From a virus (Duplodnaviria; Heunggongvirae; Uroviricota; Caudoviricetes), in IMG/VR virus record IMGVR_UViG_2534681701_000006: DNA of 38,081 nt; one strand, written 5' to 3'. The notes beneath the pieces are model-generated. The model ran no database searches, had not been told where the DNA came from, and saw only the letters and a program-made list of their open reading frames with translations. Below, in pieces: positions 30,915 to 38,081 of this stretch. The position numbers were made by a program, and so were the translations under genes. Within the stretch, counting starts at the first letter, position 1. Each line of letters starts with the position of its first letter.

Positions 30915-31126
30915 TGTTTCTTGAACATGTTACCCGTGACGGAGAGCGCTGGGATTCGCTGGCATGGCAGTACTACGGTGACCCGCTGGGCTATCCCCGG
31001 ATTATTGCCGCCAATCCGCACGTGGCCATCACGCCGGTGCTGCCCTCCGGGCTGTTGTTACTGATCCCGGTGATTGAGGCTGAAGAAGCCCGTACAGAAG
31101 AGGATATTGCCCCATGGCTGAGATAA
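30911..31126 (+). CDS. tail protein X-like (LysM-like fold), 71 aa
   Basis: Small protein with a gpX-like pattern (…WDSLAWQYYGDP…AANPHVA…); overlaps its neighbours. Confidence 0.5.
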   Translation: MMFLEHVTRDGERWDSLAWQYYGDPLGYPRIIAANPHVAITPVLPSGLLLLIPVIEAEEARTEEDIAPWLR

Positions 31127-32270
31127 ACAGCACTGCGCAAGTCACATCAGCGTTAACCGGCGTCAGCGATGTGCTGACACCGGTGTTCACTCTGTGGTAT
31201 CTGCAGAAAAACATCACCTCTGATATCGCGCCTTATGTCACCCGTGTGACCTGGAGCGATAACATCAAAAATGAGTCCGATACCATTGAGGTGGAGCTGG
31301 ACGACACCGATGGCCGCTGGCTGGATAAGTGGTATCCGGGCAAGGGTGACACGCTGACGCTGAAAATGGGCTATCAGGGCGAGAAGCTGCTGTCCTGCGG
31401 TACGTTCTCTATAGACGAGATCGAAGTGAGTTCGCCCGCTTCCGTTGTTTCTATCCGTGGGGTGGCCACCTCGGTTAACAGTGCCCTGCGGACTAAAACC
31501 AAGTCGTGGTTTTGAGAACACCACGCTGGCAGCTGTTGCGGGGCGGATTGCCAGAAAGCACCGACTGAAACTGGTGGGCAGCATTGAGTCCATCAGAATC
31601 GACCGGGTGACCCAGTATGCTGAAACCGACGTGGGTTTTCTGCGCCGGCTGGCCAGCGAGTATGGTTATGCAGTGAAAGTGGTCAGTGACCAGCTGATTT
31701 TTTCTCATCTGGCCACACTGCGCAGTCAGGAGCCGGTCAGGCAGTTAAAACCGCAGGATGTGGCCCGCTTTTCCCTGCGTGACACCATCAACCGGGTCTA
31801 TAAATCTGCAAAGGTAAAACACCAGAAAAGCAGCAGTAAAAAACTGATCGTCTACGAAGCTGATGGTGGTACCCGTGAAAGCGACAAAAAAGCTCAAAGG
31901 TGGTAAGGTTACCAGCGCTGACTCACTTAAAGTTAACAGCCGCGTCAGCGACCCGGACAGTGCCCGGATTAAAGCGGATTCAGCACTGGCCAGACATAAC
32001 GAATACCAGCAGAACGGCTCCCTGACGCTGACGGGAACACCTCAACTGACAGCAGGCAACAAAATTGAACTGGTGGGTTTTGGGCAGTTATCCGGGCCAT
32101 GGCTCATAACCACTGCCCGCCATGCGTTTGACCGTAACAGCGGCTACACCACAGAGCTGGAAGTGGCACGGGGGCCAGTCACAAGAGGGAAAAAACAAAA
32201 AACTCAGAAACTCACGGTTTATCACCCGGATGGCAGTACATCGACGGTGATTAAGGAGAAGAAAAAATGA
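31114..32270 (+). pseudogene. baseplate hub gene (P2 gpD / Mu P-like) split into three ORFs by two frameshifts
   Basis: ORFs 31114..31515, 31445..31906 and 31863..32270 occupy three frames and together span 1157 bp (~385 codons); shifts fall near a T4 run (31509..31512) and an A6 run (about 31886..31891). Confidence 0.55.
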
Positions 32271-34359: not shown

Positions 34360-34930
34360 GCCATTACAACTCCCGCCACCGCTTGAGGGTGATATCAGTC
34401 TCAGGACGCTGGGAAGACTGGCAGGACGGCTGGATAACATCGACCTGAGCGTACTGATGGTCTTTCTCGTCGATATCGTCGACAGTTCCGCGCTGCCATG
34501 GCTGGGCGAGCAGTTCTCACTGTCTGGCGATGGCTGGGAGCTGGCGGAATCGGACGATGTTCGCCGCATGCTTATAAAAGCAGCCATCGAACTGCACCGG
34601 TATAAAGGGACGCCGTGGTCAATCCGGGAAGTTATCCGCCGTTTTGGCTTTGGTGAAGTGGATCTGATTGAAGGCACAGGTCGTCTCAGTTACGACGGCA
34701 ATCGCAGCTATAACGGACTGTTTGTTCATGGAGATGCAGCCGCCTGGGCAGTTTATCGCGTTATTCTGAAACAGCCCATTACTAACGATCAGGCCGCGAT
34801 GCTGCGTCAGACGCTGGCTGCATTTGCACCGGCCCGCTGCCATCTGGCCAGCCTGGAGTATCAGTCTGTGGCCATTCGCTATAACAATACCGCCATCCAT
34901 GATGGCAGTTATAACCACGGGAGCAGTTGA
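34352..34930 (+). CDS. tail protein I-like (baseplate), 192 aa
   Basis: Position after the J-like gene and before the tail fibre gene. Confidence 0.6.
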   Translation: MTEPLQLPPPLEGDISLRTLGRLAGRLDNIDLSVLMVFLVDIVDSSALPWLGEQFSLSGDGWELAESDDVRRMLIKAAIELHRYKGTPWSIREVIRRFGFGEVDLIEGTGRLSYDGNRSYNGLFVHGDAAAWAVYRVILKQPITNDQAAMLRQTLAAFAPARCHLASLEYQSVAIRYNNTAIHDGSYNHGSS

Positions 34931-34932
34931 TT

Positions 34933-36224
34933 ATGGGAAACCTGAATGAAACAGAAAAGTGGGAAGAAAATATCTATCAACTGGAGACATCAGATCCGGT
35001 TCTGGGTGGTGCAGACGGGATATCAAATCGAGCCCCCGGCAACTGGCAAACAGGACGAAATGGCTGAAGAAGAAAACGGAGGAAGCCGCACAGTCACTGG
35101 CTGAACACGTACGTTCCCGTAACCACCCGGACGCGACACTGACAGCTAAGGGGTTCACCCAACTGAGCAGTGCCACCAACAGCACCTCTGAAACGCTGGC
35201 CGCCACACCAAAAGCGGTCAAGGCTGCATACGACCTGGCAGCCGGCAAGGCGCCTGCCAGCCACACTCACCCGTGGAGTCAGATAACGGGAGTGCCTGCG
35301 GCTTCACTGACGGCAAAAGGCACCGTACAACTGAGCAGCGCCACGGACAGTCAATCAGAAACTGAGGCTGCCACGCCGAAGGCGGTCAAGGCTGCATACG
35401 ACCTTGCAGCCGGCAAGGCGCCCGTCAGCCACACTCACCCGTGGAGTCAGATAACGGGAGTGCCTGCTGCCTCGCTGACGGCAAAAGGCACCGTACAACT
35501 GAGCAGTGCCATCAACAGCACGTCTGAAATACTGGCCGCCACACCGAAAGCGGTCAAGGCTGCATACGATCTGGCAAACGGAAAACAACCGGCAGATGCC
35601 ACGCTCACTGCTCTGGCAGGACTTGCCACTGCAGCAGATCGGTTGCCTTATTTTACCGGAGCAGACCGCGCAGCGCTGGCAACCCTTACAGCTATTGGTC
35701 GCGCTATTATCGCTAAGGGCAGTATAAAAGATGTCCTCAATTACCTTGGTTTGGGGGAAGGCTCTGCATTGCCTGTTGGTGTACCGGTTCCATGGCCCAC
35801 CGCCACACCGCCAGCAGGCTGGTTAAAGTGCGACGGGCGCGCCTTTACAAAAGAACAATATCCTGTTCTGGCCAGAGTCTACCCGACCCTCCGTCTTCCC
35901 GATTTACGCGGTGAGTTTATCCGTGGATGGGACGACGGGCGCAAGATTGACGAGGGGCGTAAGTTGCTTTCATGGCAGAAAGGTACACTGGTCGGCGGTC
36001 ATGACGATAACGATTCTTCGCTTGATATCTCGTACATGAGTAACGGAAATAATATTGACTATGGCGGCGATAAGGTGTTTGCGGGGAATTACCGTAGCGA
36101 TTATTTGTGGTACGTAATTCTGGGTGGAACAAACAGTCGCGCAAAAGCCGAATTAAACGGAGCATTCTTTAACATAACCCGCCCCCGCAATATCGCGTTT
36201 AACTATATCGTGAGGGCGGCGTGA
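34933..36224 (+). CDS. tail fibre protein with an apparent frameshift in a C5 tract (35034..35038) and phage tail-fibre repeats
   Basis: ATG at 34933 encodes MGNLNETEKWEENIYQLETSDPVLGGADGISNRAP, which resembles tail-fibre N-termini as I recall them, then hits a stop; the long ORF continues in another frame from 34959. Three ~56-aa repeats; conserved C-terminal NYIVRA. Confidence 0.7.
35745..35944. repeat. left arm of ~200-bp perfect inverted repeat flanking the invertible tail-fibre cassette
   Basis: Identical in reverse complement to 37166..37362; invertase half-site-like sequence (GGTTTGGGGGAA) at its outer edge. Confidence 0.8.
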
Positions 36225-36230
36225 TACCGT

Positions 36231-36845
36231 TCAACTGGCAAGTGCCAGTGGCGCTTCCGGCCAGCTGATTTCAGGTGCCGTGCTGATATCCAGTGCGTTC
36301 AGCTCGTCGATATAATCCAGCACGGCGTTCAGTTTTGCCGTTTCTTCTGGTGTCAGACTGCGACCAGCACGCAGTTTGAGGTTGATAAGATCGACTGACG
36401 CCATCGCCTGTTTCACCCGTTGCTGGCGTTGCTGTCTGGCAACCTCCAGTTCTGCGGCTCGCTGCCGTTCAGTATCGGTTACCCACGCCTCACCGTTCCA
36501 GGTATCCCATGGCGTGGCTGGCTGTTTTGTGGTGGTGTCCGCCGGGTAATCACCCGGTTGGGTAATCAGAACAGGGTTACCGTTCTCCGTGCTGTATACC
36601 GTCTCGCCGCGGTGATCAGGCACATGCTCCCACCCGTTCAGCGTGGCAGTCCGGCAAACCACGTAACCCGAAATTGCCTCCGGCGGTGCATCGGCGCACG
36701 AATGTGCCGGAGTACCCACCCCAAGGGCGAGATACTCCACAGAGGATGAGGTGTATTCCCGGGTTTCCTCGTCATAGTGATATACAGTGATATCGCCCGC
36801 TACAGTGGCGATACCGTTTTCATCCAGAACTGCAGTGTTACTCAT
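36231..36845 (-). CDS. tail fibre assembly protein (Tfa, Mu U-like), 204 aa
   Basis: Tfa-like size and sequence; immediately downstream of the alternative fibre C-terminus on the minus strand. Confidence 0.7.
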   Translation of the reverse strand: MSNTAVLDENGIATVAGDITVYHYDEETREYTSSSVEYLALGVGTPAHSCADAPPEAISGYVVCRTATLNGWEHVPDHRGETVYSTENGNPVLITQPGDYPADTTTKQPATPWDTWNGEAWVTDTERQRAAELEVARQQRQQRVKQAMASVDLINLKLRAGRSLTPEETAKLNAVLDYIDELNALDISTAPEISWPEAPLALAS

Positions 36846-37357
36846 TAAACTGCCCTCACAATGTAATTAAGTGCAATGCTACGGGGTCTGACAGTGATAC
36901 CCTTCGCATACCCGCTTCTGATAGAGGTCAGAATAGTAGCCTGCATACCATTGTCTGACATTGCCACGACAGGATCGCTGAATGTTGTCCCGTCCGGCAT
37001 TTTAAAGCTGCCCTCACGAAGGTCTGTAATGGAATCTTCATTGTTGAATCCCATGCCGACTATCCCCGAGGTTCCCGTAGTGTCCTGGTTATAATAATCC
37101 AGCATTGCTGTTCTTAACAGCGTTGCCCCTTGTGCGGACAGCAACTTACGTCCTGTATCAACTTTGCGCCCGTCGTCCCATCCACGGATAAACTCACCGC
37201 GTAAATCGGGAAGACGGAGGGTCGGGTAGACTCTGGCCAGAACAGGATATTGTTCTTTTGTAAAGGCGCGCCCGTCGCACTTTAACCAGCCTGCTGGCGG
37301 TGTGGCGGTGGGCCATGGAACCGGTACACCAACAGGCAATGCAGAGCCTTCCCCCAA
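36845..37357 (-). CDS. alternative tail fibre C-terminal cassette (S'v-like), with no start codon of its own
   Basis: First ~64 aa are identical to an internal segment of the plus-strand fibre (inverted repeat), then diverge; ends in NYIVRAV, paralleling the expressed fibre. Confidence 0.6.
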   Translation of the reverse strand: MGEGSALPVGVPVPWPTATPPAGWLKCDGRAFTKEQYPVLARVYPTLRLPDLRGEFIRGWDDGRKVDTGRKLLSAQGATLLRTAMLDYYNQDTTGTSGIVGMGFNNEDSITDLREGSFKMPDGTTFSDPVVAMSDNGMQATILTSIRSGYAKGITVRPRSIALNYIVRAV

Positions 37358-37362
37358 ACCAA
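37166..37362. repeat. right arm of the inverted repeat flanking the invertible tail-fibre cassette
   Basis: Reverse complement is identical to 35745..35944. Confidence 0.8.
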
Positions 37363-37428
37363 CGTTTATCTCTCAAATCCTCCCCACATTATCTCAGTAC
37401 TTTAACCACTCAAAAGGGAGTATTTTTA

Positions 37429-38001
37429 ATGCTGATTGGCTACATACGTGTGTCAACAAATGACCAAAACATAGATTTGCAACGCAATGCATTAATGTGC
37501 GCAGGATGTGAACAGATTTTTGAGGACAAAATGAGCGGAACCAAGTCGGAACGACCAGGCCTGAAACGCGCTTTAAAGTGCCTTAAAAGAGGGGATACAT
37601 TGGTGGTCTGGAAGCTGGATCGGTTGGGTAGAAGAATGAAACACCTCATTGCTCTCACAGAAGAGCTACGCGCAAAAGGTGTCAATTTTCGCAGTCTGAC
37701 GGATTCAATCGATACCAGCACTCCGATGGGAAGGTTCTTTTTTCATATGATGGGTGCACTGGCAGAAATGGAGCGTGAACTGATAGTTGAGCGCACGCTG
37801 GCAGGACTGGCTGCTGCGCGAGCACAAGGAAGAGTTGGAGGACGTCGCCCGAAACTGACGAAGGAGCAGCATGAGCAGATCGCAAGATTGCTCCAGAAAG
37901 GGTATGACAGAAAGCGGCTGGCAATTATCTATGATATTGGACTGTCAACGATCTACCGCTATCACCCTGTTGGGACTGTCATAACGCAACCTGAAATGTA
38001 A
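37429..38001 (+). CDS. serine recombinase, DNA invertase of the Gin/Pin/Cin/Hin family, 190 aa
   Basis: N-terminal MLIGYIRVSTNDQ catalytic-serine motif and C-terminal HTH; GGGAG RBS; adjacent to the invertible fibre cassette. The ORF-track start at 37300 is an upstream extension. Confidence 0.9.
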   Translation: MLIGYIRVSTNDQNIDLQRNALMCAGCEQIFEDKMSGTKSERPGLKRALKCLKRGDTLVVWKLDRLGRRMKHLIALTEELRAKGVNFRSLTDSIDTSTPMGRFFFHMMGALAEMERELIVERTLAGLAAARAQGRVGGRRPKLTKEQHEQIARLLQKGYDRKRLAIIYDIGLSTIYRYHPVGTVITQPEM

Positions 38002-38032
38002 TTCTTTTTCAAATAATGAAACGCCGCGTGGA

Positions 38033-38079
38033 TGCCATTTATCGCACAAGATAGAGTGCATTTATCGCGCGGCGCATCA
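38033..38079. other. putative prophage right end: two direct repeats (CATTTATCGC) ending in …GCGCATCA, resembling Mu attR transposase-binding sites
   Basis: GCCATTTATCGCACA and GCATTTATCGCGCGG about 25 bp apart; resembles the Mu right-end R sites as I recall them, and Mu-type ends terminate in CA. Confidence 0.3.
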
Positions 38080-38081
38080 CC

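Follow-up and report, generated by a model that had tools for sequence, protein, structure and literature searches.

The closest described counterparts of the locus analyzed here are invertible tail-fiber segments of phages and prophages. In the G segment of phage Mu, a serine invertase encoded just outside the segment acts on 34-bp repeats; the crossover lies within the fiber ORF, a constant N-terminal part receives alternative C-termini, and the segment holds two full S-U / S'-U' pairs (U vs U' 57% identical). The e14 P segment of Escherichia coli K-12, inverted by PinE and also by PinQ and PinR (PMC12529663), likewise holds a pair of tfa genes (tfaE and tfaP), which lie between the two fiber ends. 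Multiple-inversion systems, in which a Din-family invertase joins a constant part to several promoterless C-terminal cassettes, include the three-repeat P2-like prophage of EPEC E2348/69 (PMC4272514) and the FRphi tail-fiber shufflon with gin (PMC13418256); the number of tfa genes is not addressed in these two accounts.

The window, by which we mean the whole 38,081-nucleotide stretch of DNA analyzed (IMG/VR record IMGVR_UViG_2534681701_000006), very probably contains a switch of the Gin/Pin/Min type (Din family) at the right end of a BcepMu-like E. coli prophage, one that swaps fiber tips and relies on one apparently generalist tail-fiber assembly protein (Tfa). The features of the locus are as follows:

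34933-36224, plus strand: tail-fiber gene, constant part fused to tip A, equivalent of P2 H / Mu S
35137-35640, plus strand: three tandem shaft repeats of 168 bp each, coding for Phage_fiber_2 repeats (repeat search, Pfam)
35734-35759, plus strand: left crossover site, 26 bp, TCCTCAATTACC-TT-GGTTTGGGGGAA
35746-35944, plus strand: left repeat arm, 199 bp perfect, coding for the shared collar domain
35945-36224, plus strand: unique part of tip A, ~93 aa and stop, the present in-frame fiber end
36231-36845, minus strand: tfa, tail-fiber assembly gene, 204 aa, TfaE / HK97 gp29-like (Pfam Caudo_TAP, 3.5e-28)
36845-37163, minus strand: unique part of tip B, silent, ~106-107 aa and stop
37164-37362, minus strand: right repeat arm, 199 bp perfect, collar domain of the silent cassette
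37349-37374, minus strand: right crossover site, 26 bp, reverse complement GAGAGATAAACG-TT-GGTTTGGGGGAA
37375-37428, no strand: fixed spacer from the right site to the invertase start; site core to ATG, 67 bp
37429-38001, plus strand: serine DNA invertase, 190 aa, Resolvase and HTH_7 (Pfam)

An initial annotation of this DNA had described a perfect inverted repeat of ~200 bp shared by the fiber gene and a minus-strand cassette. Compared base by base, the tail-fiber gene and the silent cassette share an uninterrupted 199-bp match (35746-35944 vs 37164-37362), inside arms of 229 nt with 96% complementarity that were located by repeat search (35743-35971 / 37137-37365); the half-sites quoted at the outer repeat edges were also correct. 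The arms become identical precisely at the TT core of a pair of inverted 26-bp crossover sites, the left of which falls within the codons of a conserved GLGE motif. Both cores are TT and the half-sites are of the AAACC / GGTTT type, as in Din-family sites. The 16-mer TTGGTTTGGGRGAAGG occurs in exactly two copies in the window vs 0.02 expected by chance, and the inner half-site GGTTTGGGGGAA shares 9 of its 12 bases with Mu gix (GGTTTACAGGAA). An even closer likeness is seen with e14, where the inner arm of the site reads TTGGTTTGGGAGAAGG vs TTGGTTTGGGGGAAGG in the window, with 15 of 16 bases identical (e14 repeat: PMC12529663). The repeats differ from the 34-bp repeats of Mu in being 199 to 229 bp long, a length that stems from the collar domain common to both tips. 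Unlike multi-inversion arrays, with at least three crossover sites, the window has exactly two, which makes it a simple flip-flop; close relatives have three sites and three cassettes (L002, L006 and L171), and distant ones carry up to nine, with one tfa.

The invertase gene is intact. Its product belongs to the Din-family recombinases (Resolvase, 5.7e-51; HTH_7, 1.3e-12; Pfam), is 72% identical to Mu Gin in a global alignment, matches the Gin structures 4M6F and 3UJ3 at E ~1e-92 (4M6F: 1.3e-92) and retains the catalytic Ser9. As in Mu, the gene lies just outside the segment with a core-to-ATG spacing of 67 bp, and the whole arrangement occupies the right end of a transposable phage. Din-family systems have a recombinational enhancer bound by Fis, within or near the 5' portion of the invertase gene. 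One match to the Fis consensus, at 37499-37513, lies in a stretch conserved with Mu gin; the consensus is degenerate and shows no enrichment in the window, with 71 matches vs 85 expected.

In the mechanism we propose, the serine invertase would recombine the inverted pair of 26-bp sites at the TT cores and thereby flip a 1.6-kb segment, placing the constant part of the fiber in frame with either tip A (~93 unique aa, the present state) or tip B (~106 aa). A simulated inversion does produce an in-frame fusion of the constant part to the alternative end, and the exchange of an expressed 93-aa C-terminus for an alternative one of 107 aa, as previously suggested, agrees with the unique ends of ~93 and ~106-107 aa found here. 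The Collar domain (PF07484) is present in both tips (2.5e-15 and 9.8e-16; Pfam), and the tip matches the T4 gp37 structure (PDB 2XGF; E=1.4e-15) in an alignment that takes in the C-terminal motif, tip A ending in the T4 gp37-like NIAFNYIVRAA. Tips of this type consist of Collar, a variable tip and then a returning strand (...NIAFNYIVR...), with columns that are invariant in an alignment of eight tips. The likeness to T4 includes the collar and the C-terminal NIAFNYIVR strand. On the other hand, the needle and head of gp37 are far longer than the window tips, the chaperones of T4 are gp38 and gp57A rather than a Caudo_TAP Tfa, and T4 has no inversion system. Since A and B both belong to the small, collar-type receptor-binding tips that resemble T4 gp37, their exchange should alter phage host range.

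The fiber gene product comprises three Phage_fiber_2 repeats and Collar (Pfam). Its ORF is frameshifted near 35033, a feature absent from the initial annotation: alignment with four relatives reveals a 1-bp deletion (C5 in the window vs C6), owing to which the long ORF reads only from 34959 and a 421-aa, N-terminally truncated ORF is left. Three homopolymer indels (31501, 31886 and 35033) shift the reading frame in gpD and the fiber gene of the window. They may be sequencing errors; genuine frameshifts in gpD and the fiber gene would make the prophage defective. The tail and baseplate operon of the window is present in full and syntenic. Relatives have full-length fiber genes, and in IAI39 the intact fiber ORF carries tip A.

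Although the window itself captures a single orientation, both are found across other genomes. Among complete E. coli genomes, 327 have the constant part followed by tip B and tfa, and 103 have it followed by tip A. Two loci (L006, L007) carry the flipped state vs two others (L001, L008) that share their cassettes and invertase protein, and within the ST131 lineage both states occur at the aroA insertion site (L002 vs L004). A preprint also describes PCR-confirmed switching of prophage fiber segments in ST131 isolates. The proposal that an invertase swaps the fiber C-terminus is thus upheld by the sites, by an intact Gin-like invertase and by the occurrence of both orientations in nature.

The locus departs from the G and P segments in its chaperone gene. 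The tfa product scores 98.8 bits vs a cut-off of 22.1 for Caudo_TAP (PF02413), adjoins the fiber gene, and shares 60-62% identity with HK97 gp29 and Tfa proteins of P2-like phages. The tfaE gene of e14 is a detectable homologue (64% nucleotide identity), and the Tfa of the window shares no more than 23-25% identity with the U and U' proteins of Mu, whose tips, unlike those of the window, are not of the gp37/collar type. Only 6 bp separate the stop of tip A (36224) from that of tfa (36231), while the tfa ATG overlaps the stop of tip B (TAATG). The gene is thus physically locked to tip B, and under the proposed mechanism it would be co-transcribed with the fiber in state B only. As previously noted, tfa runs in the direction of the silent cassette and hence antisense to the fiber gene in the present state. 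It is the only tfa between the repeats and also in the whole 38-kb window, as tblastn with four Tfa queries recovered no second copy; the claim of a single tfa thus withstands the homology check. A second tfa hidden in the segment was rejected on this result and on the lack of a conserved ORF antisense to tfa in diverged relatives. The segment therefore has one tfa in place of the symmetrical arrangement, with a tfa behind each fiber end, of the Mu G and P1 C type. A sigma-70 scan of both strands of 34800-38081, which misses activator-dependent or weak promoters, returned no promoter-like sequence, and an alignment of 37 distinct sequences revealed no conserved inward-facing promoter in the stretch from the right site to the start of the invertase gene. 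A promoter belonging to tfa itself was rejected on these two results, both of which activator-dependent promoters escape.

A survey of 159 related loci places this asymmetry in context. Their arrays contain 2 to 9 T4-gp37-like collar tips and usually one 200-aa tfa, with a constant tip-tfa-opposed-tip core. Invertase-linked architectures with one tfa comprise two cassettes (n=7 loci), three (n=6) or four to eight (n=~16). A tip lies tail-to-tail with tfa in 29 cases from many genera and three phage types, and the opposed-tip ORF is intact in 28 of the 29; symmetrical versions with two 200-aa tfa genes were found at 5 loci, their two tfa copies having diverged. Judged from these sequences, the single-tfa layout is the norm for a widespread module and no peculiarity of the window locus. 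The contrast with the Mu G segment drawn in the initial annotation is accordingly sound as an asymmetry, but not as an oddity of this locus, since one tfa per 2 to 9 collar tips is standard in the module. The locus is a two-cassette member of a mobile host-range module that spans Mu-like and P2-like prophages and phage-like plasmids with phage genes (a holin adjoining the invertase). The module of the window is 96% nucleotide-identical to one on a 95-kb phage-like plasmid, located between a fiber gene and a holin gene. We take the multiple-inversion system Min of plasmid p15B to be a match for modules of this type.

The survey also bears on the range of the chaperone. The same tip types recur in three settings: upstream of tfa, in the opposed position and within arrays; one locus (L094), for example, has an A-type tip immediately upstream of tfa. 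Since the same clusters occupy all these positions, a separate Tfa-independent class made up of opposed tips was rejected. One cluster of Tfa N-domains (at least 90% identical, n=32) stands behind 12 different tip clusters, and for this reason Tfa looks like a generalist rather than a tip-specific chaperone. Co-variation of the Tfa N-domain with the adjacent tip was mostly rejected at the family level, with the exception of the window's own variant, which stands behind tip B in 14 of 14 occurrences and never elsewhere; a chaperone specific to tip B would show this restriction as well. T4 gp37 can be assembled with the Tfa of phage lambda in place of gp38, a precedent for a non-specific Tfa.

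For tip A in state A, three possibilities appear about equally likely: Tfa could be supplied by an orientation-independent transcript or in trans, the tip could fold Tfa-free, or the particles could be poorly infective. Homologues of Tfa are detectable in about half of the complete E. coli genomes, and as the median is one copy per genome having any, supply in trans by other prophages cannot be assumed.

An elaboration that we consider unlikely is that one promiscuous Tfa serves up to nine tips and that inversion to an opposed tip removes the chaperone from cis, so that each flip would set both the tip and the presence of Tfa, yielding fibers with or without a Tfa cap. If true, this would add an extra receptor-specificity state or a deliberately non-infective OFF state absent from the Mu and P1 models. 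Given the site geometry, expression of the opposed tip always leaves tfa antisense, the sigma-70 scan detected no independent tfa promoter, and published work indicates that Mu Tfa remains on the virion and contributes to host recognition. However, tip types move freely between array positions, which argues against specialization for a Tfa-free state, and the scan would have missed activator-dependent or weak promoters.

It is more doubtful still that the asymmetry is a functionless product of decay, in which an ancestral tip-tfa / tfa-tip segment lost one tfa and state A became a dead end. The three frameshifting indels in gpD and the fiber gene, the flagging of fiber pieces in relatives as pseudogenes by NCBI PGAP, and the five symmetrical loci with diverged tfa copies are compatible with such a history. 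The 29 cases of the tip-tfa-opposed-tip core, spread over many genera and three phage types with nearly all opposed ORFs intact, point the other way, as does the intact fiber ORF with tip A in relatives such as IAI39; the indels of the window, being homopolymeric, may not be biological at all.

By analogy with what is reported for StfE2 of e14, a fiber fragment made by inversion might instead serve the host, for instance by blocking the adsorption of other phages. The crossover site is nearly identical to that of e14, on which Pin invertases act in trans (PMC12529663), and the frameshift does leave a truncated fiber ORF of 421 aa. Such domestication is nonetheless very improbable, given the complete, syntenic tail and baseplate operon and the full-length fiber genes of relatives. 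A static inverted duplication or assembly artifact with no working switch, to which the single orientation visible in the window and its error-like homopolymer indels might point, is hardly credible in view of an identity that begins exactly at the core of two canonical sites, an intact invertase, both orientations across hundreds of finished genomes (including one lineage) and the PCR confirmation of prophage fiber-segment flipping in the preprint.

The preferred reading thus remains a Din-family switch between two collar tips with one generalist Tfa. Invertase-driven fiber switching is textbook knowledge and the element is present in hundreds of sequenced E. coli genomes, so the locus in itself adds little. 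The survey, in turn, indicates that the one-chaperone-per-tip pairing of Mu is not general for collar-type tips, for which many tips share one Tfa, and it raises the testable question of how tips fold when the orientation leaves tfa antisense. Should one generalist Tfa suffice, the engineering of phage and tailocin host range would become simpler, as tips could be swapped and the chaperone kept.

Repeat search placed inverted arms of 229 nt and 96% complementarity at 35743-35971 and 37137-37365, and base-by-base comparison of the arms delimited a perfect 199-bp run (35746-35944 against 37164-37362), in agreement with the ~200-bp inverted repeats described in the initial annotation. Arm identity starts exactly at a TT dinucleotide, and the same TT forms the centre of two 26-bp sequences. 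The 16-mer TTGGTTTGGGRGAAGG occurs in exactly two copies in the 38-kb window (chance expectation, 0.02).

Sites and genes of the module, with Pfam domains
35734-35759, left 26-bp site, TCCTCAATTACC-TT-GGTTTGGGGGAA
37349-37374, right 26-bp site, reverse complement GAGAGATAAACG-TT-GGTTTGGGGGAA
ending at 36224, plus strand, tail fibre ORF (three Phage_fiber_2 repeats and a Collar domain)
36231-36845, minus strand, tail-fibre assembly protein, tfa (Caudo_TAP)
36845-37357, minus strand, Collar-domain fragment ORF, the silent cassette
37429-38001, plus strand, serine recombinase (Resolvase and HTH_7)

In a simulated inversion, the silent cassette joins the constant part of the fibre in frame, exchanging a unique end of about 93 aa (tip A) for one of about 106-107 aa (tip B), as had been proposed. 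The stop codons of the fibre gene and tfa are just 6 bp apart. At the other end of tfa, its ATG overlaps the stop of tip B (TAATG; 36843-36862, minus strand), and a GAGGG Shine-Dalgarno-like sequence lies there within the conserved IVRA codons of the tip, which implies a potential ribosome-binding site at the 3' end of every tip in the family. The Phage_fiber_2 shaft repeats are encoded by three tandem 168-bp repeats (35137-35640; 100%, 83% and 65% identical to the first), whose copy number probably varies, given that annotated fibre genes of relatives range from 2004 to 2436 nt.

Upstream of the fibre gene lie the P2/Mu-type baseplate genes V, W, J and I, and among phage records the closest match is a Bcepmuvirus, whose early genes are Mu-like. 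The element ends just past the invertase, where the host neighbours are unrelated from one E. coli genome to another (aroA, paaJ, irp2, a lateral-flagellar cluster), the behavior of a transposable prophage. The window differs from phage PhiKM (99.5% identity over 5.9 kb) by three single-base indels, each in a homopolymer: one A is inserted near 31501 and another near 31886, both in A runs of gpD, and a C is missing near 35033 (35033-35039) in the fibre gene, C5 here versus C6 in four relatives. The two insertions split gpD (late control D, 31114-32270) into three overlapping ORFs. The fibre gene is frameshifted about 100 nt after its start, so that the frame of the start codon at 34933 ends at a stop at 35067, and only from 34959 is there a long ORF. 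The three indels may be sequencing errors or real decay, and the fibre gene, likewise, may reflect a sequencing error or be a real pseudogene.

The locus belongs to the well-known tail-fibre switches driven by Din invertases. Its invertase shares 72% identity with Mu Gin and retains Ser9, and the 67 bp between site core and invertase start exactly equal the distance in Mu. Mu G/Gin is nearest in layout; the e14 P segment is nearest in site sequence, the inner arm differing from its repeat at 1 of 16 bases (PMC12529663), and multiple-inversion arrays are nearest in cassette type. Several Pin invertases act in trans on e14-type sites (PMC12529663). In seven related arrays (L105, L126, L103, L104, L112, L013 and L107), tblastn also gave a short 27-nt hit to the invertase, on the opposite strand and ~280 bp past the full gene.

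Both orientations are found in other genomes. A query built from the constant part, tip B and the start of tfa detected the inverted junction at a coverage of at least 80% in 327 complete E. coli genomes, and the window-type junction was present in 103. Two related loci (L006 and L007) are in the flipped state, with tip A silent and the same tip B, tfa and invertase protein as the window, while L001 and E. coli IAI39 (L008) share the window's state. Two ST131 records, both with the prophage inserted at the aroA site, are in different states: the stretch from the first to the second crossover site is inverted in L002 relative to L004. A preprint on ST131 isolates reported reversible inversion of prophage tail-fibre segments, confirmed by PCR, and one of its phage records has 98.7% nucleotide identity to the window's invertase and silent-cassette end. 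Phase variation was shown earlier for an EPEC Mu prophage (PMC4272514).

The symmetrical Mu/P1 layout is defined by a tfa for each tip, a feature absent here: tblastn with four different Tfa proteins found no second tfa anywhere in the 38-kb window. An alignment of eight tips was used to retrieve 79 bacterial-genome loci and 80 viral-contig loci, in all of which collar cassettes, tfa genes and invertases were located by tblastn.

Surroundings of collar tips and arrangement of invertase-adjacent loci
Downstream of a collar tip, a 200-aa tfa in sense: 154 cases
Downstream of a collar tip, another cassette in sense: 54 cases
Downstream of a collar tip, a tail-to-tail tfa (the situation of tip A): 29 cases
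One collar tip and its tfa, paired with another type of tip that has a separate, shorter tfa: 45 loci
Two collar cassettes, one tfa: 7 loci, including the window
Three collar cassettes, one tfa: 6 loci
Four to eight collar cassettes, one tfa: about 16 loci
Two collar cassettes, two diverged 200-aa tfa genes: 5 loci

The 45 loci have the classical symmetrical arrangement, examples being Klebsiella phage Kp4845-2 and Citrobacter phage Omnitron. Every array shares a core in which one tip lies directly upstream of tfa and a second is opposed, 5-7 bp from the tfa stop. The asymmetry relative to Mu is real, yet the survey shows it to be how this module is normally built; the initial observation is confirmed and its interpretation supported. 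One viral contig (L115, 5004-9133) holds two identical tip-tfa-tip units in mirror arrangement, which might stem from mixed orientations assembled together and not from a true duplication. A 95-kb phage-like plasmid (L171, NZ_MN101855.1) also carries the module, at 96% nucleotide identity and with one tfa for three cassettes, flanked there by a tail-fibre gene and a holin gene. The module is shared by this phage-like plasmid, P2-like prophages and the Mu-like prophage of the window (loci L009, L010 and L105 besides L171), and it acts like a host-range cassette that is exchanged horizontally.

The tips align with the T4 gp37 tip structure 2XGF (E=1.4e-15), and the match extends to the C-terminal NIAFNYIVR strand. 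T4 gp37 requires gp38, for which phage lambda Tfa can stand in, a precedent for low Tfa specificity. Among 267 tips clustered at 60% identity, the same types were found upstream of tfa, opposed to it and within arrays, and in L094 an A-type tip lies directly upstream of tfa. One cluster of Tfa N-terminal domains, described as the fibre-binding part, follows 12 different tip clusters (at least 90% identity, n=32), and at 80% identity one cluster (n=53) follows about 20. These sequence associations support Tfa as a generalist chaperone. The window's own variant was found behind tip B only (14/14), so in this lineage Tfa may instead be B-specific.

Because no crossover site separates tip B, tfa and tip A, expression of tip A always leaves tfa antisense to the late operon. 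No sigma-70-like promoter was found on either strand of the region, the spacer next to the invertase showed no conserved motif facing inward, and no conserved ORF lies antisense to tfa. Related tfa genes occur in other prophages of about half of E. coli genomes, but with a median of one copy per genome with any. Three readings of this state are about equally probable: Tfa could come from an undetected transcript or in trans, tip A may fold without Tfa, or this orientation may give poorly infective particles. A terminator-like hairpin with a trailing T run (36322-36341, plus strand), within the antisense of tfa and ~100 nt downstream of the tip A stop, is predicted and could end the late transcript in the present orientation, with terminator-like matches in the region no higher than chance (4 found versus 3.2 expected).

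The lack of a tfa for each tip is a trait common to the window and a large, previously sequenced family.
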